Of a stretch of DNA of 19,638 nucleotides, positions 3,523-17,894 are shown in pieces. Position 1 is the stretch's first letter. The number at the start of each line of letters is the position of its first letter. The notes under the pieces are model-generated. The model was given only the letters and a program-made list of their open reading frames with translations, ran no database searches and was not told the DNA's origin. Position numbers and translations under genes: made by a program. The DNA is from an uncultured Christensenellaceae bacterium. Lineage in GTDB: Bacteria; Bacillota; Clostridia; Christensenellales; CAG-1252. The stretch spans positions 1 to 19,638 of the forward strand of contig CAYOYS010000013.1 in the NCBI GenBank assembly GCA_964408255.1. Reading direction: 5' to 3'.

Positions 3523-3683
3523 CTGCCTTGCTTTGCAGAACCGACCGAGCAAGCTGGTAATTGCCTTACCGACCGAGCAAGCCGGTAATTGCCTTGCTTT
3601 GCAGAACCGACCGAGCAAGCCGATAACTGCCTTGCTTTGCAGAACCGACCGAGCAAGCCGATAACTGCTTTGCTTTGCAGAAC
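3523..3683. repeat. Tandem array of about 4.5 copies of a 38-bp GC-rich unit (TGCCTTGCTTTGCAGAACCGACCGAGCAAGCCGATAAC). Each unit contains an internal inverted repeat. One copy carries an 11-bp deletion.
   Basis: Units at 3523-3561, 3562-3589 (short), 3590-3627, 3628-3665 and 3666-3683 (partial). Units 3 and 4 are identical. No unique spacers, so it is not CRISPR. Confidence 0.85.
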
Positions 3684-3948: not shown

Positions 3949-5577
3949 ATGAGTATGTTTTGTTATCAATGTCAAGAAACTGCGGGCAACAAAGGTTGCA
4001 CAATCCGCGGTGTATGCGGCAAGAATGAAGAAGTTGCAAAACTGCAAGATTTGTTGATTTATACCTTAAAAGGCATCGCGGAGATTGTGGTAAAGAACAA
4101 AGTCGACGTCAAAACTATCGATAACATCAATTTTGAGGTGTTAAGCAGTCTGTTTATGACCATAACCAACGCGAACTTCGATGACGGCTCGATTGAAACT
4201 CAAATCAAAAAGATGCTTGAGTTAAGGAATTCTTTGAGGGCTGCTAATAAGTTGACGGATTATCATGATGCCGCGGTATTCGAGGCGGAAGATAGAGCGG
4301 CGATGCTAATAAAGGCATCCGAAGTCGGCATACTTGCTACCGAAGACGAGGATATACGCTCTCTTACTCAAATGATTACATACGGGCTTAAGGGTATGGC
4401 GGCGTACGCGGAGCATGCGAAAAATATCGGGAAAGAAAACCTTGAGATTAACGCCTTTATATACGAGGCACTGTCCGCGACACTCGATGAGAAACTTACA
4501 GTCACGGATTTGGTAGCTTTGACTTTGAAGACCGGCGAATTCGGCGTTAAGGCAATGGCACTACTCGACGAAGCCAACCGCTCACGGTTCGGCAACCCCG
4601 AGATAACCGAGGTCAATATCGGTGTGAGAGGCAATCCCGCGATATTGATTACCGGACACGATATGATTGACCTTGAGCAACTGCTCGAACAGACGAAGGG
4701 AACGGGAGTAGATGTCTATACACATAGCGAGATGTTGCCGTCGCATTATTATCCCGCATTCAAAAAATATCCTAATTTTGTGGGCAACTACGGCAACGCA
4801 TGGTGGAAGCAGCTTGACGAGTTCGTATCTTTTCGCGGACCAATTCTGTTCACTACCAACTGTATCGTTCCGCCAAGAAGCGAGGAAGTAAAAAACAGAA
4901 TTTTTACCACCGGCGCAACCGGCTATCCGGGGTGTAAGCATATTCAAGCGGATAAAAACGGAAAAAAAGATTTTTCAGAAATCATCGCGCTTGCTAAGAC
5001 ACTTCCCCCGCCCCAAGAGATAGAAACGGGCAGTATTGTCGGAGGCTTTGCGCACAATCAGGTGCTTGCGCTTGCCGACAAGATTATAGCGGAGGTAAGT
5101 AGCGGGGCAATTAAGAAGTTCTTTGTTATGGCAGGCTGCGACGGACGTATGAAATCTAGAGATTATTATACTCAATTCGCTGAGAAACTGCCTAAAGATA
5201 CTGTAATACTCACCGCGGGTTGCGCTAAGTACCGCTACAACAAGCTAGAGCTTGGCGATATTAAAGGGATACCTAGAGTGCTTGACGCGGGGCAGTGCAA
5301 CGACTCCTATTCTTTGGCGGTAATTGCGCTTGCGCTAAAGGACGCTTTTGGGTTGGACGACATCAACAAACTGCCGATAGTATTCAATATCGCTTGGTAT
5401 GAGCAAAAAGCCGTTATCGTATTGCTTGCGTTGCTGTACTTAGGTGTAAAGAATATCCACCTTGGACCCACGCTCCCGGGGTTTTTATCTCCGAACGTAG
5501 CTAAGGTATTGATTGAGAAGTTTAATATTGCGGGCATAGGAACGGTAGAAGACGATCTAAAGTTATTTTTAGAATAA
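3949..5577 (+). CDS. hcp: Hybrid cluster protein (hydroxylamine reductase / NO-detoxifying Hcp).
   Basis: AAGGAGGA RBS then ATG at 3949. N-terminal Cys motif [23 protein letters not shown] is diagnostic for Hcp. Length about 540 aa. Rubredoxin immediately upstream and a Crp/Fnr regulator nearby. Confidence 0.95.
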
Positions 5578-5768
5578 AATAATAATAAGCACATTACTTC
5601 CGATAACGATAGCGCAACATATAACAAAGCTATTGAATCAATCATATAGGGCGAATTGTTTCCTATAATGATAGCGCAACAAACACAATATTTTAGAATA
5701 AACAATCATATAGCGTATTACTTCCGAGGACAATAGCGCAATAAATTGCAAGATTTTAGAATAAAATC
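5567..5768. repeat. Tandem array of three degenerate units of about 64 bp. The first unit begins inside the last codons of hcp (TTTTTAGAATAAAAT). Units share the pattern ..TTCC(G/T)A(T/G)(A/G)A(C/T)(G/A)ATAGCGCAA(C/T)A...ATTTTAGAATAAA.
   Basis: The pattern ttagaataaa(a/c).. recurs at 5569, 5691 and 5753. GATAGCGCAACA recurs at 5608 and 5672, with CAATAGCGCAATA at 5729. Period 59-64 bp. Confidence 0.75.
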
Positions 5769-5781
5769 ATAACATAAGCAT

Positions 5782-5818
5782 AATTCGGTGACCGCCCGAT
5801 ACGGGCGGTCGCCGAATT
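5782..5818. terminator. Near-perfect 17-bp-stem palindrome AATTCGGTGACCGCCCG-ATA-CGGGCGGTCGCCGAATT between convergent genes. It is a strong hairpin with no U-tract on either strand.
   Basis: Inverted repeat read directly from the sequence. One T/C mismatch becomes a G.U pair in RNA. Downstream of hcp (+) and of the DUF218 gene (-). Confidence 0.5.
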
Positions 5819-5833
5819 AATTAATGCCGAAGA

Positions 5834-5978
5834 GGACAATTTCGAGTCGGCAATATTTTGTGTCTTTTCAGTTTATATCCGTCATCGGCACTAAGCAGCT
5901 AAATTTTTCACAACATAGCGCTACTATGAGTAAAAAGTTTGACAAACCAATCTCGAAAATCATTCAAAATATTCATCA
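5834..5978. repeat. Copy A of a modular interspersed repeat (element X). Conserved left arm CAAT(T/C)TCGAGT..AATATTTTG..TCTTTTCAG, conserved block ATATCCGTCATCGGCA, a copy-specific centre, and a conserved right arm AATCTCGAAAATCATTCAAAATATTCATCA. The arms are imperfect inverted repeats of each other.
   Basis: Aligns along its length with 14036-14196 and 17705-17831 (estimated 70-80 percent identity in the arms). Left arm ATATTTTGtgTCTTTTCAg matches the reverse complement of right arm gaAAATCAttcAAAATAT. Confidence 0.7.
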
Positions 5979-6055
5979 ACACTCTTATGTCTACTTCTAT
6001 TATTGCGCCGTATGTGTTGCGCAATCGAGTGTATGTTAAGCGTAGTATGGCGCTT

Positions 6056-6466
6056 TTAATCGGCTATTATGGGAATTATCGCGTATCCTTTTAGACGCGC
6101 TCGGAATAGACGTATCGGGTTGAGAAGCCGCCGCTTAAGGTGGGTGGAGGATGAGCATAGATAAATTTTATCCACTCCCGCGGCGAGTATCATATTTTTT
6201 GCGAATTTCGCATTTTGATAGGTGGTCTTAGATTGCCGCTCGAGTATAAGCCTTTCGGATGAAATACCTCTTTTGATTAGATAATCCTGCATCGCCTCTG
6301 CTTCAGTAACGCCTGCTTTGACATTCGCAAGACCTCCGCAAAGCAGCGCCATATCATATGTATTGTCCTTAAGCCCTTTGTATGCAGTCTTGCAACGCTC
6401 GCTCATCTCGGTGTGGAAAGAGCCGTCATTATTCAATCTTTTTCCCAAAACAACAAGTAATTTCAT
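6056..6466 (-). CDS. DUF218 (YdcF/SanA/ElyC-like) domain protein.
   Basis: Start trimmed to MKLLVVLGKRL (ATG at 6464-6466), which lies 1 nt after the upstream esterase stop. Motif run LLCGGLANVKAGVTEAEAMQDYLIKRGISSERLILERQSKTTYQNAKFAKNMI is characteristic of DUF218. Confidence 0.7.
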   Translation of the reverse strand: MKLLVVLGKRLNNDGSFHTEMSERCKTAYKGLKDNTYDMALLCGGLANVKAGVTEAEAMQDYLIKRGISSERLILERQSKTTYQNAKFAKNMILAAGVDKIYLCSSSTHLKRRLLNPIRLFRARLKGYAIIPIIAD

Positions 6467-6467
6467 A

Positions 6468-7406
6468 CTATTCTTTGATATAACCGTTAATAAAATCCAT
6501 AGTTTGCCTAAAACAGTCCAACCCTTTTTTTGTCCTTGTCGCAATACCCGCGGCATGCAGCGAAAGTACCCCCGTGCCCTTATACATCTTGTACGGCACA
6601 TTAAGACTATCGAGCTGCTTCGCAAGCGCAAAACTTTCGTGGCGCAGTAGGTCATGCGCGCCGTAAATAATCATCATGGGCGGAAAGTCCTTAGTCATAT
6701 AAGAGGTGGGGGATAAAAGCTTAATTTTTTCGGTGTCTGCGCCCTTTATGATATCGGAAAGAGTAAGGTCGGTATAGCAGCGTAGCATTGTCTTCATGCC
6801 CGGGAAATGGGAACGGGTAAGCCGTACCATATCGAACGCGCCGCAATTACAGATTCCCGCGGTAATGTCGAAGGTGTCACGATGTCCAAACTCAATTCCT
6901 AGCTTATCGAACAGCGACTTATCCTTTACAATTGCCGATACCGCAAGCACAAAATAGCCGCCTGCGGATTCGCCCGCAATTACCGTTCTGTCCGTGTCGA
7001 TACTGTATTTTTCCGCGTTATCCAAGATAAAATCGATTGCTTTGAATATTTGTCTAAGCTGGTGGGGAAAGACCTTTTTAGGAGCGGTAGAATAGTCGAT
7101 ATTGGCAACGAAATACCCCTCTTTTGCCGCGTGATAGCAATAATAATTCCGTAAGTTTTTTTGTCCGGAAATCCAGCCCCCGCCATGAATCATAATCATT
7201 AAGGGCTGCTTGACTTTATTCTCTACCGCTTGCTTGTCATATATGAGGTTGCAAAGCTCGTTTTCGTCGGGGTCACCGTATGCTATGTCCTTTTCGATTG
7301 CGATGCCCTCGGGCAGCGGCTCGTATATCAAAGGGTAAAGAAAGTATTCGGTAAAATTCAAAAAGGTTTTTAGCGCGACACCTCTAACATAGGTCAATTT
7401 TTTCAT
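6468..7406 (-). CDS. Alpha/beta-hydrolase-fold esterase/lipase (HSL / Abhydrolase_3-like).
   Basis: Start trimmed to MKKLTYV (ATG at 7404-7406), with GGAGAG seven nt upstream. Oxyanion motif IHGGGWISG, nucleophile elbow GESAGG, and C-terminal DLLRHE region. Confidence 0.85.
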   Translation of the reverse strand: MKKLTYVRGVALKTFLNFTEYFLYPLIYEPLPEGIAIEKDIAYGDPDENELCNLIYDKQAVENKVKQPLMIMIHGGGWISGQKNLRNYYCYHAAKEGYFVANIDYSTAPKKVFPHQLRQIFKAIDFILDNAEKYSIDTDRTVIAGESAGGYFVLAVSAIVKDKSLFDKLGIEFGHRDTFDITAGICNCGAFDMVRLTRSHFPGMKTMLRCYTDLTLSDIIKGADTEKIKLLSPTSYMTKDFPPMMIIYGAHDLLRHESFALAKQLDSLNVPYKMYKGTGVLSLHAAGIATRTKKGLDCFRQTMDFINGYIKE

Positions 7407-7560: not shown

Positions 7561-8568
7561 ATGGCGGCGATAGACACGGTCAAAAAACGCAAGGTTGCGC
7601 ATATACTTTCCGAAATATTGAAAAATGGTGAGGTGTGCAAGCTTGCGCTTAGAACGGCAACGGGGTACAGTACAACGACTGTTGATTCCGCGCTCAAGAA
7701 CCTTTCGGAACAAAGAATAATAACCATTGGCGAGAAAAAGAGCGGGGCAGGGAGCAGAAAGATTGCGATAAGCGCGAATCCACGCATAGTAATTGCGGGA
7801 GTCAGTTATTATCGTATGAAGCTGTACGGCAAGCTCATGCAGCTTGACGGCAAAATTGTAGCAACCGGCGAAAAGGAGCTTAACGAATCCCATTGCGACC
7901 TATCAGACAGCGTTACCGCGTTGATTGAAAGCATGCTAAGCGCAAGTCCTACTCTTGCCGCAATCGGCGTTTCGGTAGCTATGGGCGATAGCACGAGCTT
8001 TGCACGGATACTTGCTTTAAGGTTTTCTGTGCCCGTTCATGTGTCAGACAGCCTTTCGGCGCTCGCAATGTATTATCGATATAAGGTTAAAAAGAATAAC
8101 ACAAACCTCGCAGTTCTTTACGCGGGTAAGCGAATTCGCTCGGTCAAGGTCAAGGAATGGGGGGAGGATATTGAGCTTGGCAACTTGCTTTCGCCGATTA
8201 TTTCGGCAAAAAAAGGTAGGCTGATTTATGACGAGGTACTGTCCGCGGAGGCGGTAAGACACCGTATGCGGCAAAAGTTCGGCAAGGCGGAGACCGCGTT
8301 CGAGGCGGGAACGCTCGAGCCGGAAATCTCCTTTTATGCCAAGCAATTGCAGTATGCGCTAGGCGAGCTTATATTGCTTATTGACAAGACGGTTAAGCCG
8401 TCCGCGATAATTACCGCGGGAGAATATATGACCAAAGAGCTTATAGAAGGAAGCCTTGACAGCTTAGCCGGCGGCGTCCGCGCCGAAGTTGTTTGCTTTG
8501 AGAAAGGGCGCGACGAGATTATCGAAGGAGCATGCTATATCGCGTACAACGGATTATGTTATTATTAA
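7561..8568 (+). CDS. ROK-like (NagC/XylR-fold) protein with an N-terminal HTH. Probably a transcriptional regulator. The zinc-Cys ROK signature is not evident.
   Basis: N-terminal HTH region LRTATGYSTTTVDSALKNLSEQRII, followed by an actin-like ATPase-fold start RIVIAGVSYYRMKLYG. Divergent from the esterase operon. Confidence 0.55.
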   Translation: MAAIDTVKKRKVAHILSEILKNGEVCKLALRTATGYSTTTVDSALKNLSEQRIITIGEKKSGAGSRKIAISANPRIVIAGVSYYRMKLYGKLMQLDGKIVATGEKELNESHCDLSDSVTALIESMLSASPTLAAIGVSVAMGDSTSFARILALRFSVPVHVSDSLSALAMYYRYKVKKNNTNLAVLYAGKRIRSVKVKEWGEDIELGNLLSPIISAKKGRLIYDEVLSAEAVRHRMRQKFGKAETAFEAGTLEPEISFYAKQLQYALGELILLIDKTVKPSAIITAGEYMTKELIEGSLDSLAGGVRAEVVCFEKGRDEIIEGACYIAYNGLCYY

Positions 8569-8576
8569 TGCGTCAA

Positions 8577-8880
8577 TAGCGCAACAAAATCCGTCTTTAA
8601 CTTGCAGTGTTGCAAGGCTTTAATTAGCCCGATAAAATCCATTTTAATTACGGTGTAGCAATATTTTGATTATATCGCGAATAAAAGTCGTTATAATTGC
8701 GGTATTGTAATTTTGATTATAGCGCGAATAAAATCTACACTAACTTGCGGTATTGTAATATTTTGATTATAGCGCGAATAAAATCTACACTAACTTGCGG
8801 TATTGTAATATTTTGATTATAGCGTGAATAAGATTTGTATTATTACAGTGTTGCAATGTTTTGATTTATCTATAATATTT
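8577..8880. repeat. Tandem array of about six units of a 47-52 bp AT-rich repeat. Two units are identical 50-mers (8713-8762 and 8763-8812): TTGATTATAGCGCGAATAAAATCTACACTAACTTGCGGTATTGTAATATT.
   Basis: Period of 50 read directly from the sequence. Degenerate flanking copies at 8577-8628, 8629-8665, 8666-8712 and 8813-8880. Not spacer-separated. Each unit boundary gives TTGCGG-17-TATAGC and TTGATT-17-TACACT promoter-like spacings. Confidence 0.85.
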
Positions 8881-9074
8881 GTTCGCAAAAGAATGAAATT
8901 TGGATATTCAGGCAACATATGTTAGTAAAAGCGATGTATTATTATCGAAGAATAAACGGCGGTAAGTGATTGCCGTTAAGGATTAGAATACCGCATATAA
9001 ATAACTTTGCCGTGGCGCAATAGGCTAACGCTTCCAATTTGTCAAAAATAATTTTGATAACAACTTGTAAGTTA

Positions 9075-9103
9075 TTGTAAAAATCTAAATAATTTGATAT
9101 AAT
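9075..9103 (+). promoter_or_regulatory. Sigma-A-type promoter TTGTAA-17-TATAAT upstream of the membrane protein / NfeD / flotillin cluster.
   Basis: Hexamers at 9075-9080 and 9098-9103 with exact 17-bp spacing. AGGAGG RBS at 9120-9125 and ATG at 9131. Confidence 0.5.
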
Positions 9104-9130
9104 TACTTTACGATATATTAGGAGGAATTT

Positions 9131-9838
9131 ATGGTTACTTATATACTGCTTGCGTTAGGCATAGTAAGCCTTATCGGTTTTTTGGTCGTAAGAGACAAGA
9201 ACGGAAGCCCTCTAGCTACCATACTCAAGACTCTTACAAGTCTTTTTTTCATAGCGACTGCGATTGCCGCACTCGGCGAAAATGAAACAGTATCCTATGA
9301 TAGGATAATTGTTCCCGCTTTGCTTATCATAATGGGTCTTGTCTTGGGGCTTGTGGGCGACATTACTCTCGACCTTAAGATTACTTATCAAAAAATGATT
9401 AAAGACAGTGACACCTATACTTTTGCGGGTATGGCATGCTTCGGCATCGGGCACATTCTTTATATTGTGGCAATAGCTATACTTTACGAGTTCAGCGGTT
9501 GGGCGATACTTGTCGGAGTAGGGCTCAATGCCGCGATATTCGCAGTCAGCATATTCCTTATGAAGATGAAGTTCGGCAAATGGCTTATCCCGAGCATGAC
9601 TTATGGATTCCTTCTTTCGATATTTATGTGCGTTGCAGGCGCCTCTTGTATTATCGAAAAGACTGTCGGACCCGATTTGATACTATTCCTTATCGGCTCC
9701 ATTCTTTTCCTCTTATCGGACCTCGTGCTTTCCATGACATATTTTGAGGGCAAAGATAGTAAAATAATGATAATAACCAACCATGTGCTGTATTATGCGG
9801 CGCAATTTTCCATTGCGATAGCCGTACTTTATATCTAA
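9131..9838 (+). CDS. Polytopic integral membrane protein, possibly YhhN-family (lysoplasmalogenase-like).
   Basis: Six or seven hydrophobic segments. Segments GLVGDITLDL and GIGHILYIVAIA resemble the YhhN GD..HL motifs. Strong RBS. Immediately upstream of NfeD and flotillin. Confidence 0.5.
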   Translation: MVTYILLALGIVSLIGFLVVRDKNGSPLATILKTLTSLFFIATAIAALGENETVSYDRIIVPALLIIMGLVLGLVGDITLDLKITYQKMIKDSDTYTFAGMACFGIGHILYIVAIAILYEFSGWAILVGVGLNAAIFAVSIFLMKMKFGKWLIPSMTYGFLLSIFMCVAGASCIIEKTVGPDLILFLIGSILFLLSDLVLSMTYFEGKDSKIMIITNHVLYYAAQFSIAIAVLYI

Positions 9839-9875
9839 ACCGTTTCTGCGGACGGCTACAGTCGAAGGAGGTATT

Positions 9876-10466
9876 ATGACTGCATTTTGGACGAGCTGGG
9901 ATTTGCTTAGCAAAATCATGTTTTGTTTGGGTTTGGCTAGCACCGTAGCTTTGACAGTACAAGTAATCTTTTTGATTATCGGATTCGCCGGTGGTTCTTT
10001 AGGCGACGTTGACGGCTTCGGCACGGACGGCGACATTAACCTTGACGACGCTTCGGCGGGTGTCGAAGTGGGCTTTTTTACCCTTAAGGGCGTTCTTGCC
10101 TTTTTCGCGATTGGCGGCTGGGTGGGGCTTGGTATGAATCTGGCGAACCTGCATATTGCGTTGGTCCTTGGCGTAGCGATACTGTGCGGCGCCGCGGGAC
10201 TAATGGGGGTCGGCTTTTTGTATCGCGCCTTGTATAAGCTGCAATCCTCGGGCAATATCAATACCGAGAATGCCGTGGGCAAGATTGCCGAGGTTTATCT
10301 TACGATTCCTAAATTGGGTATCGGCAAGATAGTTCTTAACGTTCAAGAACGATTCATGGAGTTCGAAGCAAGAAGCAACGCCGATAGAGATATCAAGACG
10401 GGCGAAAGAGTCAAGGTAGTTGAAAAAGCGGGCGGAATGTTGATAGTCGCTCCGCTCGAGGAATAG
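9876..10466 (+). CDS. NfeD-family membrane protein (short form, C-terminal OB-fold), the usual partner of flotillin.
   Basis: GGAGG RBS. N-terminal membrane segments. C-terminal beta-rich domain GKIAEVYLTIPKLGIGKIVLNVQERFMEFEARS...GERVKVVEKAGGMLIVAPLEE. Upstream of an SPFH protein, as in the yuaF-floT arrangement. Confidence 0.8.
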   Translation: MTAFWTSWDLLSKIMFCLGLASTVALTVQVIFLIIGFAGGSLGDVDGFGTDGDINLDDASAGVEVGFFTLKGVLAFFAIGGWVGLGMNLANLHIALVLGVAILCGAAGLMGVGFLYRALYKLQSSGNINTENAVGKIAEVYLTIPKLGIGKIVLNVQERFMEFEARSNADRDIKTGERVKVVEKAGGMLIVAPLEE

Positions 10467-10649: not shown

Positions 10650-12086
10650 ATGAGTGGCGGAATAATCGCTTTAATCATAATAGTTGTGGTTTTAATTTTA
10701 TCGGCAATTGTGCTGATGTTTTTGACGAGGTACAAAAAATGTCCTTCGGATAAAATTATGGTAATTTACGGCAAGATTTCTAATAATGCCGACGGCACAT
10801 ACCGCTCGGCAAGATGTATTCACGGCGGCGCGGCGTTCGTTATACCTGTCTTTCAAGCACATTCTTTTCTTGACTTGACACCAATATCGATAAGCGTAGA
10901 CTTGCGCAACGCCCTTTCAAAACAAAATATTCGTATCGATGTCCCGAGCCGCTTTACAGTCGGCATCTCGACCGAGTCGGGCGTTATGCAAAACGCCGCA
11001 GAAAGACTCCTTGGGCTGACGTTAAGCGAGATTCAAGAGCTTGCCAAAGATATTATCTTAGGTCAACTCCGTCTTGTGATAGCCACAATGGAAATCGAGG
11101 ACATCAACAGCGACCGCGACAAGTTCCTTGAGGCGGTGTCCCGCAACGTGGAAGGCGAGTTGAAAAAGATTGGCTTAAGGCTGATTAACGTCAACATTAC
11201 CGACATCAACGACGAGTCGGGATATATCATAGCTTTGGGTAGGGAAGCGGCGGCGAAAGCGATTAACGCGGCTAAGATTTCGGTCGCGGAGGCGGATAAG
11301 CACGGCGCGATAGGTCAAGCCAACGCACAGCGCGAGCAACGAATCAACGTTTCGGCGGCGGAAGCGGAAGCGATATCGGGCGAGAATGCCGCGAAAGCGG
11401 ACATAGCTGCGGCGCAGGCGGTATTAAGAGAGAAAGAGGCAGAGGCGTTGCGTAGGGCAACCGCCGCTGAGAAGATTCAGGCGGCAAAAGCGCTCGAGGA
11501 ATCGTATGAAGCGGAAAAGAAAGCCGAGCAAGAACGTGCGGCAAGAGAGACCGCGACGCTTGAGGCGGACGTAATCGTCAAAATGGAGATTGAAAAACGG
11601 CGCAAGGAGATAGAGGCAGAGGCGGAAGCCGAACAGGCAAGACGGCGAGCGCGAGGCGAAGCAGACGCGATTTTTGCCAAAATGGAGGCGGAAGCAAGAG
11701 GCGTTAAGGCAGTCTTGACAGGTCAAGCGGCAGGCTTAGGCTCTATTGTCGAGGCTGCCAACGGCAATCCCTCTGAGGCGATGAGGCTTATGATAGCGGA
11801 CAAAATCGAAGCGCTCGTTTCGACACAAGTCGAGGCGATTAAGAACCTTAAGATTGATAAAATTACCGTTTGGGAGAACGGCGGCAAGGATAAGAACGCA
11901 ACCGCGAACTTTATATCCGGCTTATTGAAATCTTTGCCCCCTATGACCGATTTGTTCAACATGGCGGGACTTCAGCTACCCGATATAATCAAGGCGAAAG
12001 CGGTTGAAGAAACGAAAGCAGTTGACGGGGTGAAAGCGGTTGACGAGGTGAAAGCGACGGAATCCGAAGAAATAAGCACGGAGTAA
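10650..12086 (+). CDS. floT: Flotillin / SPFH (band-7) domain protein, FloT-like.
   Basis: AAGGAGG RBS. N-terminal TM. SPFH domain. Long Ala/Glu-rich coiled-coil segment EAEAISGENAAKADIAAAQAV...EKRRKEIEAEAEAEQARRRARGEADAIFAKMEAEARG, typical of flotillin EA repeats. Confidence 0.9.
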   Translation: MSGGIIALIIIVVVLILSAIVLMFLTRYKKCPSDKIMVIYGKISNNADGTYRSARCIHGGAAFVIPVFQAHSFLDLTPISISVDLRNALSKQNIRIDVPSRFTVGISTESGVMQNAAERLLGLTLSEIQELAKDIILGQLRLVIATMEIEDINSDRDKFLEAVSRNVEGELKKIGLRLINVNITDINDESGYIIALGREAAAKAINAAKISVAEADKHGAIGQANAQREQRINVSAAEAEAISGENAAKADIAAAQAVLREKEAEALRRATAAEKIQAAKALEESYEAEKKAEQERAARETATLEADVIVKMEIEKRRKEIEAEAEAEQARRRARGEADAIFAKMEAEARGVKAVLTGQAAGLGSIVEAANGNPSEAMRLMIADKIEALVSTQVEAIKNLKIDKITVWENGGKDKNATANFISGLLKSLPPMTDLFNMAGLQLPDIIKAKAVEETKAVDGVKAVDEVKATESEEISTE

Positions 12087-12097
12087 CACCGAGTAGT

Positions 12098-12150
12098 ATC
12101 GGCACAGTTACAATCGGCACAGTTACAATCGGCACAGTTACAATCGGCGC
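12098..12150. repeat. Three perfect 15-bp tandem repeats ATCGGCACAGTTACA plus a degenerate fourth, immediately after the flotillin stop.
   Basis: Units at 12098-12112, 12113-12127 and 12128-12142, read directly from the sequence. Confidence 0.85.
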
Positions 12151-12517: not shown

Positions 12518-13165
12518 CTAATGGATAAAAGATTTGTACTCTTTGCCGTAATATGTCTTAGCAAGCTTACTAAGCAGCGTTTGAAGAGGTAAAAAGCATA
12601 CCGCGACTATCAAGCCGTTAGATATAACGTGTGTGATATAGAACGCGACACCACGCAAATATATTATCGGAAAGAGAACGGTGATTGCAAAATCGGTCTT
12701 TGCCGAGCCGACGAGCGCATCGACAAAGCTTGTCAGCACTCCGAATAACGCGCTGCACAGCACGGCAAGCGCGGTATATGGCATGATAAGCATACTTTTA
12801 TTGCTTATATTTTCGTCGTGTTGCGCGCGCATTAGCTTCGCAAGCAGACAACTTAAGCATGCAAGCATGGGCCAATAGATAAAATAGGATATCACCCAAG
12901 TATTAAAGCCCCAAATCATCGTTTCGATAGTTACGAAGATTAAAGTCGCGGTAACGGATATCTTCATACCGAACACATACGCATAGACTATGATTAAGAG
13001 CGTCACTATCTCGATATTGGGTATAAAGGAAAGCGCGAGCTTACCGCCCGTTAGGACGGCGGTAAGCATCGCGATAAGCACGATATCCTTGATTGTCTTT
13101 AGGCGGCTTTCCAATCTTATTCGAGAATTATAAATGCATCCTCGTTGACGGTAGAGGATATCCAA
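12518..13165 (-). CDS. ECF-transporter S-component-like small polytopic membrane protein (about 190-215 aa). Under cobalamin-riboswitch control, so it is a candidate cobalamin (CbrT-like) substrate-capture component.
   Basis: N-terminus KTIKDIVLIAMLTAVLTGG resembles the start of ECF S components. Five or six TM segments. The longest ORF starts with TTG at 13163-13165, inside the upstream gene. The real start may be the TTG at 13112-13114 (2 nt after the upstream stop) or the GTG just after AAGGA. Co-oriented directly downstream of the riboswitch-controlled lipoprotein gene. Confidence 0.6.
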   Translation of the reverse strand: MDILYRQRGCIYNSRIRLESRLKTIKDIVLIAMLTAVLTGGKLALSFIPNIEIVTLLIIVYAYVFGMKISVTATLIFVTIETMIWGFNTWVISYFIYWPMLACLSCLLAKLMRAQHDENISNKSMLIMPYTALAVLCSALFGVLTSFVDALVGSAKTDFAITVLFPIIYLRGVAFYITHVISNGLIVAVCFLPLQTLLSKLAKTYYGKEYKSFIH

Positions 13166-13605
13166 TCCTCGCCGAAGGTCACGGTGCAGAACAAATACGA
13201 TACTCCGTCAATTACCGGCATTGCGCTCGCTCCGAGTCCCGCGCTGTAGTAGGTAACGTCGCCGTAAAGTAGGTTGGTTATGGTAGCATCTATATAGTTA
13301 ACGTCGCTGCTGCTTAAGTAAAACATAATACTAGTACGCGTCTCATTGTCCGATACCAATTCTTTTTCCACTCCCTTTATTGAGGTTATCATTATACCGT
13401 AGATGCTTTCCGTGTAGGTCAGCTCGAGCGAACCCGCTTCATCGAGCGCTATCAAAAGAGCCGCAAGACTGTCGTAGCTTCCTTCGGGTATTGCGATGAC
13501 CTCACCGACCGCAGGCACAACCGTGGGGTTATTGTCGCAGGCGAATAGGGATGCCGAGATTATTACAATAAGTAATATAACGATTAAAGGTTTTAGTTTT
13601 TTCAT
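13117..13605 (-). CDS. Small secreted lipoprotein (about 145 aa mature) of unknown family, first gene behind a cobalamin riboswitch.
   Basis: Start trimmed to MKKLKPLIVILLIVIISASLFAC (ATG at 13603-13605) with AGGAGG six nt upstream. Signal peptide plus lipobox LFAC. The long N-terminal extension in the ORF track (MRRQ...) overlaps structured RNA and is rejected. Confidence 0.75.
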   Translation of the reverse strand: MKKLKPLIVILLIVIISASLFACDNNPTVVPAVGEVIAIPEGSYDSLAALLIALDEAGSLELTYTESIYGIMITSIKGVEKELVSDNETRTSIMFYLSSSDVNYIDATITNLLYGDVTYYSAGLGASAMPVIDGVSYLFCTVTFGEDWISSTVNEDAFIILE

Positions 13606-13780
13606 ATGCTTCCTCCTATAATAACCGGTATTATACCGCAGGGCAAGCCCTGCACCCGATGCCTTCGGCATCTGCCGCCGCAAGCGGCGGGTATTAGACC
13701 TTGTTGTTAGCGTTCATAAAAATGCCCTTGCGAGCAAGCATTTTTACTCCGCTAATAAAAAAATACCTTATTTCATAAGG

Positions 13781-13809: not shown

Positions 13810-13975
13810 TCCCTCCCTCCGAGAGCGGCGCAAGCTACGGCTGTGTTCGGTATCCTGGCTTAAGCGGCAATCTTGCCTCGCCGACCTTCCCGTTAAGTGG
13901 TCTTTGGCGATTTCGCTTTTACAGTAGCGGGGGCTGCGGCGGTATCTAACCGCCTTCCCGAATCAACAACCTGTA
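13810..13975 (-). promoter_or_regulatory. Cobalamin (AdoCbl) riboswitch aptamer.
   Basis: Minus-strand RNA carries the hallmark blocks in order: GGGAAGGCGGU...AUACC, GCAGCCCCCGCUACUGU (B12-box variant), CCACUUAACGGGAAGG and AGCCAGGAUACC. This matches the conserved Cobalamin-family core that I recall. The family assignment is established knowledge; I could not run a covariance-model search. Confidence 0.85.
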
Positions 13976-13987
13976 TTTATTTATTTT

Positions 13988-14016
13988 ATTATACCGCCAC
14001 TTTGTAAAAAATTCAA
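13988..14016 (-). promoter_or_regulatory. Minus-strand promoter TTGAAT-17-TATAAT driving the riboswitch operon.
   Basis: Reverse complement of ATTCAA at 14011-14016 and ATTATA at 13988-13993, with a 17-bp spacer. Predicted TSS a few nt before the aptamer. Confidence 0.55.
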
Positions 14017-14035
14017 GTGATTTATGCTTTTTGGA

Positions 14036-14196
14036 GCGAGCAATTTTGAGTTGTAATATTTGGGGTTTTTTAATCTCATATCCTTAATCGGTACTTAAGC
14101 GCTTAAATCTTGCCTATCACTAACATTCAAATTATAGCGATAGAAGTAAAAAAATGACGAATCTAATCTCGAAAATCCATTCAAAACATTTTATCA
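14036..14196. repeat. Copy B of modular repeat element X. It lies between the divergent riboswitch-operon promoter and the surface-protein promoter.
   Basis: Left arm CAATTTTGAGTTGTAATATTTGGGGTTTTTTAATCTCATATCCTTAATCGGTA. Central palindrome TTAAGCGCTTAA. Right arm AATCTCGAAAATCCATTCAAAACATTTTATCA. Aligns with copies A and C. Confidence 0.7.
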
Positions 14197-14260
14197 GCTC
14201 ACTTTTGTTCGCTTCTATGCGAATAAAACTTACATTTTTTAATTGTGAAAGTTATTTAAC

Positions 14261-14289
14261 TTGACAGTTAATACTACTATAAATATAAT
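14261..14289 (+). promoter_or_regulatory. Perfect consensus sigma-A promoter TTGACA-17-TATAAT for the surface-protein / thyA operon.
   Basis: Hexamers at 14261-14266 and 14284-14289, spacer exactly 17. AAGGA and ATG (14310) downstream. Confidence 0.65.
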
Positions 14290-17605: not shown

Positions 17606-17704
17606 ATACAGCCTCCGTTAAATGATTATGGACAATTAAGCGGCATTTAGACAATTACCATGTATTATATTTTCGTGATAAGCGACAGCTATTAGTGTCG
17701 GAGT

Positions 17705-17831
17705 GGACAATCTCGAGTTGTTAATATTTTGAGGTCTTTTCAGCTCATATCCGTCATCGGCATTAAAACGCCTAATTCTTTCAAGAATTAGGCAAATCTA
17801 GTCTTGAAAATCCAATCAAAATATTTTATCA
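17705..17831. repeat. Copy C of modular repeat element X, with a perfect central hairpin GCCTAATTCTT-TCA-AAGAATTAGGC.
   Basis: Left arm GGACAATCTCGAGTTGTTAATATTTTGAGGTCTTTTCAGCTCATATCCGTCATCGGCA. Right arm AAATCTAGTCTTGAAAATCCAATCAAAATATTTTATCA. The left arm is about 20/25 complementary to the right arm. Confidence 0.7.
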
Positions 17832-17865
17832 TTCTCTTTTGCCATTCCTTATTAGCGCGGAGTTG

Positions 17866-17894
17866 TTGACATAAGAGCGACTCGCTTATATAAT
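17866..17894 (+). promoter_or_regulatory. Perfect consensus sigma-A promoter TTGACA-17-TATAAT. The predicted TSS is about 2-3 nt before the apgM ATG, so the mRNA would be leaderless or near-leaderless.
   Basis: Hexamers at 17866-17871 and 17889-17894. No SD before the ATG at 17904. The spacer contains the small palindrome AGCGACTCGCT. Confidence 0.6.

Follow-up and report, generated by a model that had tools for sequence, protein, structure and literature searches.

The window, by which we mean the whole stretch of 19,638 nucleotides (19.6 kb) analyzed here, an entire NCBI contig of an uncultured Clostridia MAG, contains three copies of a short repeat that we call element X, all of them on its + strand and all in intergenic DNA. 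Copy A lies between the convergent hcp and DUF218 genes. Copy B is found between a cobalamin riboswitch and a gene encoding a 566-aa protein, and copy C between yetF and apgM; B and C both sit between divergent promoters. This intergenic distribution and the homology of the three copies, both put forward in a first-pass annotation of the same DNA, hold. Mean column identity is 72% in a MAFFT alignment of the three regions with their flanks, and 75% in a trimmed alignment of the cores together with a fourth copy, located on a metagenome contig (L068). A profile HMM of the copies finds only these three matches in the window (nhmmer; E values of 9e-46, 1e-41 and 2.5e-42).

The extents reported earlier (5834-5978, 14036-14196 and 17705-17831) proved too narrow, as the complementarity of the arms runs outward to a 10-bp terminal helix. 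Based on the alignment, the HMM and the extent of this helix, the core of copy A spans 5829-5997 (169 bp, 34.9% GC), that of copy B 14033-14215 (183 bp, 32.8% GC) and that of copy C 17700-17848 (149 bp, 34.9% GC). Copy B is the most diverged of the three. At 33-35% GC, the cores are clearly more AT-rich than the window as a whole (44.7% GC).

Two further inverted repeats border copy A. Immediately to its left, at 5781-5819, there is a strong hairpin with an 18-bp stem (94% complementary) and a 3-nt loop. Although without a clear T-run, it is probably the bidirectional terminator of hcp and DUF218, which converge here. Immediately to its right, at about 6010-6033, lies a perfect palindrome, ATTGCGC-N10-GCGCAAT.

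For comparison, related genomes were available from Logan SRR24962750 and SRR8925730 (L001 and L002), GCA_023396575.1 (L004), Logan ERR3139790 (L005) and GCA_964441295.1 (L006). The ApgM proteins of four related genomes are 73-81% identical to that of the window.

Several other repeats are present in the window. Directly after the hcp stop codon, at 5567-5765, there are three repeats of roughly 62 nt, each containing ATAGCGCAA. The same 9-mer recurs at 8576-8777 in a 50-nt tandem array (8660-8831, 3.5 copies, 90% matches), bringing its number in the window to 6 against 1.1 expected; these ATAGCGCAA repeats may represent a second repeat family or a protein-binding motif. The 50-nt array is part of a 560-bp non-coding stretch at 8568-9130. 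In L001 and L005, the same slot, from a gene encoding a 335-aa protein to the YhhN gene, is occupied by a FAD-dependent gene of 506-507 aa (DUF8436/HI0933-like), which appears to have been lost or replaced by repeats in the window. A 38-nt tandem array (3.1 copies, 96% matches, plus a 28-nt variant) is located at 3540-3683, within the 430-bp cupin-hcp spacer that constitutes the hcp upstream region. Finally, the Band7/SPFH gene carries an 18-nt coding repeat at its 3' end (11992-12056) and is followed, just past the gene, by a perfect 15-nt tandem repeat, ATCGGCACAGTTACA (12098-12148, 3.4 copies).

Organization of element X

The most conserved part of the element is a 16-nt block, ATATCCGTCATCGGCA, which is nearly invariant and identical in four of five left halves. 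It folds as a small CCG/CGG hairpin and is placed asymmetrically, in the left half of the element, at 5875-5890 in copy A, 14078-14093 in copy B and 17747-17762 in copy C. In its degenerate form, ATATCC(G/T)T(C/A)ATCGG(C/T)A, the block, which the first-pass annotation had described for each copy, occurs exactly three times in the window. In copy A it is preceded by the left arm (5829-5871) and followed by a central hairpin (about 5891-5945) and the right arm (about 5946-5997).

The two arms are imperfect reverse complements, also in agreement with the earlier description, and every copy folds as a single long, interrupted hairpin. At its base is the 10-bp terminal helix, the left strand of which reads G(A/G)AGN(A/G)(A/G)(A/G)(C/T)A, while the right strand ends in CT(T/C)C; in copy B the two strands have co-varied (GGAGCGAGCAA/TTGTTCGCTTC). 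Further inward, complementary sub-blocks are formed by GAGT, by AATATTTTG/CAAAATATT and by TTTTC/GAAAA, in addition to the central hairpin. The two arms have a direct component in common as well, CAAT[C/T]TCGA ... AATATT, because TCGA and AATATT are themselves palindromic. As a consequence of this direct component, RNAalifold finds an alternative register.

The centre of the element had been described as specific to each copy. However, the centres of A, B and L068 are homologous and align as TAAAT[T/C]TT...ATAGC...CTAT.AGTAAA...TGAC, and copy C merely lacks the tip of the central hairpin. What is left in copy C is a shortened hairpin at 17769-17794, with the perfect stem GCCTAATTCTT/AAGAATTAGGC, and its core measures 149 bp as opposed to 169-183 bp in A, B and L068. 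Element X therefore occurs in at least two size variants, and copy C is an internal-deletion variant. Rather than the modular, BOX-like build with a variable central module that had been proposed, the alignment points to one palindromic unit plus a variant of it with an internal deletion, a situation nearer to that of Correia/NEMIS with their two size classes.

Insertion sites and further copies

Direct repeats of 5-8 bp flank all three copies in the window, in line with the insertion-site duplications that the earlier annotation had named as a check. Copy A is preceded by ATTAATGC (5820-5827) and followed by ATTATTGC (5999-6006), which match at seven of eight positions. Copy B is bordered by TATGC on both sides (14023-14027 and 14216-14220; 5/5 match), with TTTTT between the left repeat and the core. 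For copy C, the left repeat TATTAGTG (17690-17697) and the right repeat TATTAGCG (17850-17857) read TATTAG(TG) and TATTAG(CG), respectively, i.e. a 6/6 match that extends to 7/8, the right-hand repeat being native sequence. When small offsets were allowed, shuffling gave individual P values of 0.007-0.025 and a joint value of about 5e-5 on the sum over the three copies. Moreover, the empty site of L005 has a single occurrence of the right-hand repeat of copy C, as would be expected of a target-site duplication. The repeats are short and imperfect and stand at no constant distance from the terminal helix (0-5 nt on the left, 0-1 nt on the right), so that the exact termini and the length of the duplication are uncertain. 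A target preference is suggested by the similarity of the three targets to one another (TATTA..GC-like). The likeness of the A and C flanks (ATTAATGC and ATTAGTG), read here as such a preference, could in part be element sequence.

At sites B (cobalamin riboswitch to the 566-aa gene) and C (yetF-apgM), L001/L002, L004 and L005 are syntenic with the window and carry no element. The relatives do keep the native TTGACA-17-TATAAT promoters at both sites. In the window, the corresponding promoter-like sites lie outside the element on the + strand and are conserved in relatives: that of apgM at 17866-17894, 9 nt past the right repeat of copy C, and that of the 566-aa gene at 14261-14289. The insertions at B and C lie between divergent promoters, 8-40 nt upstream of their -35 hexamers, and leave the native promoters intact. 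Virtual excision of the element together with one repeat renders site C colinear with L005 and site B colinear with L001; the yetF-apgM spacer is then 138 nt long, compared with 147-153 nt in the clean relatives. On the evidence of these alignments, element X is an insertion relative to the related genomes.

The riboswitch beside copy B (RF00174, 70.5 bits) is located at 13831-14007 on the minus strand, upstream of two minus-strand genes without Pfam domains (13117-13683 and 12518-13165). Both the aptamer and this gene arrangement are conserved in L001, L002 and L005. The left flanking repeat of copy B lies about 7 nt upstream of the -35 hexamer of the riboswitch promoter.

Two loci did not lend themselves to the same comparison. 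In L006, the yetF-apgM spacer (9705-10001, about 295 bp) has no element X; it holds unrelated extra sequence, for which reason it is not a clean empty site, and a different insertion may have taken place there. Copy A sits at a synteny breakpoint (window 3949-6655 compared with L145, L147 and L148). In relatives the DUF218 gene is followed by the cobalt-transport genes cbiM/PDGLE, whereas in the window it faces a Crp/Fnr-ferredoxin-cupin-hcp cluster. Because of this breakpoint, the empty-site comparison is limited to the other sites.

A scan of JGI metagenomes returned four matches, one of which is real: L068, a contig of 1,909 bp from metagenome Ga0172382. On its minus strand, it carries a full copy (core 6-176) directly beside a second left arm and block (184-263), and the contig ends 5 nt past the core of the full copy. 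Four full copies are thus known, three in the window and one in L068. The gltX gene of L068 is 99% identical to P0121, a protein from an NCBI contig. The gltX identities (99, 85, 75 and 74%) parallel those of ApgM (100, 81, 78 and 73%), with the same next-closest MAG in both series, and the window and L068 very probably represent one species. The earlier view of element X as a repeat family is borne out by a full copy and a left half at an unrelated locus of an independent contig.

The relatives have gltX downstream of typA/bipA, in the same orientation and separated from it by 34-67 bp that are free of the element (L144, L149 and L150). In L068, by contrast, this spacer slot holds at least 260 bp of element DNA, antisense to gltX and about 10 nt from the gltX ribosome-binding site. 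Judged from this arrangement, expression of the essential gltX gene of L068 must depend either on transcription reading through the element or on a start inside it. As no convincing outward promoter was found in the element, co-transcription of gltX would be the more likely of the two.

Outside this lineage, no copies came to light in the collections searched. An exact search with the 18-position pattern TTTTNANNTNATATCCNTNATCGG in 185,579 species genomes gave 59 loci, all of them chance matches and none similar beyond the pattern; since such a search would miss diverged relatives, and the MAG to which the window belongs is outside that collection, all it shows is that the exact block is uncommon elsewhere. 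No match was present among plasmids and phages, and viral contigs gave 74 chance matches only. Likewise, copy A has no match in 5,426 complete E. coli genomes (blastn in distant mode). A terminal-repeat pattern search of all loci used for comparison for a possible IS end recovered only the known copies. Closer to the window, about 100 kb from four related genomes contain no copies, against three in the 19.6-kb window itself. Within these searches, element X is lineage-restricted. The earlier statement that it matches no known family remained true for every library searched, including Rfam.

Folding, coding capacity and internal signals

Minimum free energy folds pair the two ends in all four copies. 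On a consensus structure of 47 pairs in six helices, which was defined by hand and derived from the same four sequences, 86% of cells pair, compared with 41-50% after shifting the 3' partners by 1-3 columns; in the terminal helix (helix 1) the figure is 90%. Changes on both sides that keep the pairing were counted at 7 pairs in these four sequences, whereas shuffles gave 3.6 ± 1.2 (7 was reached in 2 of 500), and four of the seven fall in the terminal helix, where they make up 4 of 10 pairs. With four sequences and a structure derived from them, the evidence for pairing and compensation is limited. When the left arm of one copy was combined with the right arm of another, the native combination ranked third among 24 permutations, which is not significant; only the arms of copy B specifically fit each other.

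Single copies differ in the strength of their predicted folds. On wider stretches including flanks, z scores are -4.5 for copy C and -2.3 for copy B, and the core of L068 reaches -3.5 with mononucleotide shuffles. Copy A folds no better than shuffled sequence (z -0.3). Comparing strands, A favours the minus and C the plus strand, while L068 favours neither, so that overall the folding energies are about equal. In these models the palindrome is real, and no single transcribed strand is indicated.

The terminal helix varies while its pairing is kept, and the best-conserved segment is internal. This is unlike what would be expected of a transposase recognizing fixed ends. The pattern could reflect a functional single-stranded hairpin, important as RNA or for mobilization by a structure-specific enzyme, template-switch 'correction' in a quasi-palindrome or the small sample. 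Template switching of this kind can mimic compensation without any enzyme recognizing the hairpin.

The open reading frames that overlap the copies are short; their frame differs between copies, they are broken in the other copies, and none is conserved. None of the seven ORF translations over the copies is present in the protein collection. A small-protein reading was rejected, given the unconserved frames and the stops present. The element encodes nothing. No transposase was found in the window.

At the gathering threshold, a search of the whole window against Rfam yielded only the cobalamin riboswitch, which is unrelated to the element. With permissive scans (E ≤ 10), copies A, B and C did not rise above noise, scoring 9-25 bits versus cut-offs of 35-376. 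Promoter and terminator scans in both orientations revealed no signal common to the copies. Copy C alone has a promoter-like site (10/12, at 17804-17832) and a minus-strand terminator-like hairpin, neither of which is kept in A, B or L068.

Classification of element X

We consider element X to be most probably a lineage-specific, non-autonomous mobile DNA element of the MITE or foldback-repeat kind, and put the probability of this reading at roughly 70%. Prokaryotic MITEs were taken as defined in PMC10969869 (sec. 2.1) and PMC3049150 (Background). At 149-183 bp, the non-coding cores are well within the size of such elements (<500 bp, typically <200 bp). They end in an inverted repeat, the 10-bp helix, and are flanked by direct repeats, although the data do not fix the length of the duplication. 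Copies are dispersed, three in the window and 1.5 in L068, and filled sites have empty counterparts in L001/L002/L004/L005 and in L144/L149/L150. The copies are AT-rich and intergenic, in promoter-proximal or operon-spacer DNA, and their predicted structure is strongly paired, with the exception of copy A and its weak fold. Every feature of the definition that can be tested is thus found in element X, and a parent IS with matching ends would lie elsewhere in the genome.

The MITE-like reading implies the following course of events. The transposase of an IS elsewhere in the genome would move the element in trans, recognizing its ends, and a staggered cut would leave a duplication of about 5-8 bp at TATTA..GC-like targets. 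Effects on the host would be by-products: at sites B and C, upstream DNA would have been pushed away from the promoters, and in an operon spacer, such as typA-gltX in L068, the element would be co-transcribed into a long RNA hairpin that could alter mRNA stability, as in ERIC and BOX.

Alternatively, the hairpin itself rather than a pair of ends might be what is mobilized. In an element of the REPIN or IS200/IS605-derived type, an HUH (Y1) or other structure-specific enzyme would act on the single-stranded foldback, including the conserved asymmetric bulge ATATCCGTCATCGGCA, and the double-stranded ends of the element would not be bound by a DDE transposase. Such an origin fits the fact that an imperfect palindrome takes up the full length of every copy, with pairing kept through the seven both-sides changes described above, that the internal CCG/CGG hairpin block and not the termini is best conserved, and that both strands fold about equally, as expected of a hairpin acting at the DNA level. 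We nevertheless hold it to be unlikely. Flanking direct repeats are present, whereas neither REP/REPIN nor IS200/IS605 transposition is known to make target duplications. In addition, no GTAG-type REP head is conserved at the ends, own arms pair no better than swapped ones with the exception of copy B, and the compensation can arise by template switching in quasi-palindromes.

The first-pass annotation had left a choice between a BOX/RUP/MITE-type element and a structured cis-regulatory RNA. Its MITE-type option is upheld by the empty sites, the direct repeats, the inverted ends, the AT-richness, the lack of coding capacity and the extra copies. The RNA option, understood more widely as genes for structured non-coding RNAs, or cis-acting leaders, that have been duplicated to several loci (an sRNA, a 6S-like decoy or an mRNA-stability element), could draw on the long, stable folds with z scores down to -4.5, on the both-sides changes that keep pairs, on the sense orientation of B and C upstream of genes, and on the probable transcription of the L068 copies, which are located where relatives have an operon spacer. 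Yet orientation is inconsistent, since B and C are sense and upstream, A is downstream of both convergent genes and L068 is antisense upstream of gltX. Folding energies show no strand asymmetry, the fold of copy A is no better than that of shuffles, there is no Rfam family even at E ≤ 10 and no conserved promoter or terminator in either orientation. Moreover, relatives, with genes and promoters otherwise conserved, lack the element in the corresponding regulatory regions. We therefore think it quite improbable that element X is an RNA gene or leader.

That element X is host regulatory DNA, i.e. a composite binding site for a transcription factor or nucleoid protein upstream of promoters, seems very improbable: the short distance of B and C to the -35 hexamers and the arms, with their conserved 16-nt block and the palindromic motifs TCGA and AATATT that recur in them, would suit such a role, but copy A between convergent genes has no promoter to serve, the neighbours are functionally unrelated (apgM, yetF, the B12 riboswitch operon, gltX and hcp), relatives regulate the same genes without the element, and a length of 150-180 bp with flanking duplications is not a feature of operator sites.

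Among known repeat systems, several resemble the MITE-like element proposed here. Correia elements or NEMIS, the MITEs of Neisseria, are likewise small, non-coding and intergenic, with terminal inverted repeats, target duplication and two size classes of about 107 and about 155 bp that are distinguished by an internal segment (PMC2229807). They also insert near promoters and within transcription units. Compared by description, however, Correia elements duplicate TA whereas element X is flanked by repeats of 5-8 bp, and the Correia ends are near-perfect over about 24-26 bp, whereas in element X an interrupted complementarity runs through nearly the whole element. The hosts differ as well, Neisseria in one case and an uncultured Clostridia lineage in the other.

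ERIC is an imperfect palindrome of about 127 bp that forms one long stem-loop. It is intergenic and is also found in the spacers of operons, where it is transcribed along with the genes and influences mRNA stability depending on its orientation (PMC2229807). The L068 copies, in what is the typA-gltX operon spacer of relatives, occupy a similar setting. Element X differs from ERIC in phylum and in flanking repeats, and copy A had no match in the E. coli genomes. Furthermore, ERIC is old and conserved across genera, while element X is missing from the nearest related genomes.

Like element X, the RUP and BOX repeats of Streptococcus pneumoniae are AT-rich Firmicute repeats of less than 200 bp with inverted ends, target duplications and strong folds. 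BOX is composed of boxA, a variable number of boxB and boxC, in contrast to the single homologous centre of element X, which has a deletion variant and no tandem internal module. RUP is 107 bp long, targets TA and matches the ends of IS630-Spn1; it is by description that element X is set apart from both. Finally, REPs and the RAYT-mobilized REPINs share with element X the character of palindromic extragenic repeats, the hairpin being thought to be the mobilized substrate. REPs are units of 20-40 nt with a conserved GTAG head, occur as inverted doublets and are not known to produce a target duplication. Element X is instead a single unit of 150-180 bp with flanking direct repeats, ends in G(A/G)AGN... 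and has no conserved GTAG.

A bolder interpretation would assign the function to the single-stranded hairpin of a foldback element. The kept terminal pairing, the nearly invariant asymmetric bulge ATATCCGTCATCGGCA as a protein-recognition knob and the conserved central hairpin would point in this direction. The element would then either be moved by a structure-specific enzyme of a kind not yet tied to target-duplicating repeats, or have been domesticated as a transcribed RNA module that tunes its neighbours, including the essential gltX. We rate this outcome as unlikely.

As a MITE-like repeat, element X is an ordinary kind of bacterial genome parasite and represents no new mechanism or category. 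It does add to the small mobile repeats a family not described before, hosted by an uncultured Clostridia lineage and present three times in 19.6 kb. Short-read assemblies can break at such repeats, and the fragmentation of such MAGs may in part be due to them. Element X appears to mark a very recent genome change and, as close relatives lack it at identical loci, it could be used as a strain or lineage marker. Its insertions beside -35 hexamers and about 10 nt from the gltX ribosome-binding site offer natural experiments in how much promoters and operons tolerate.
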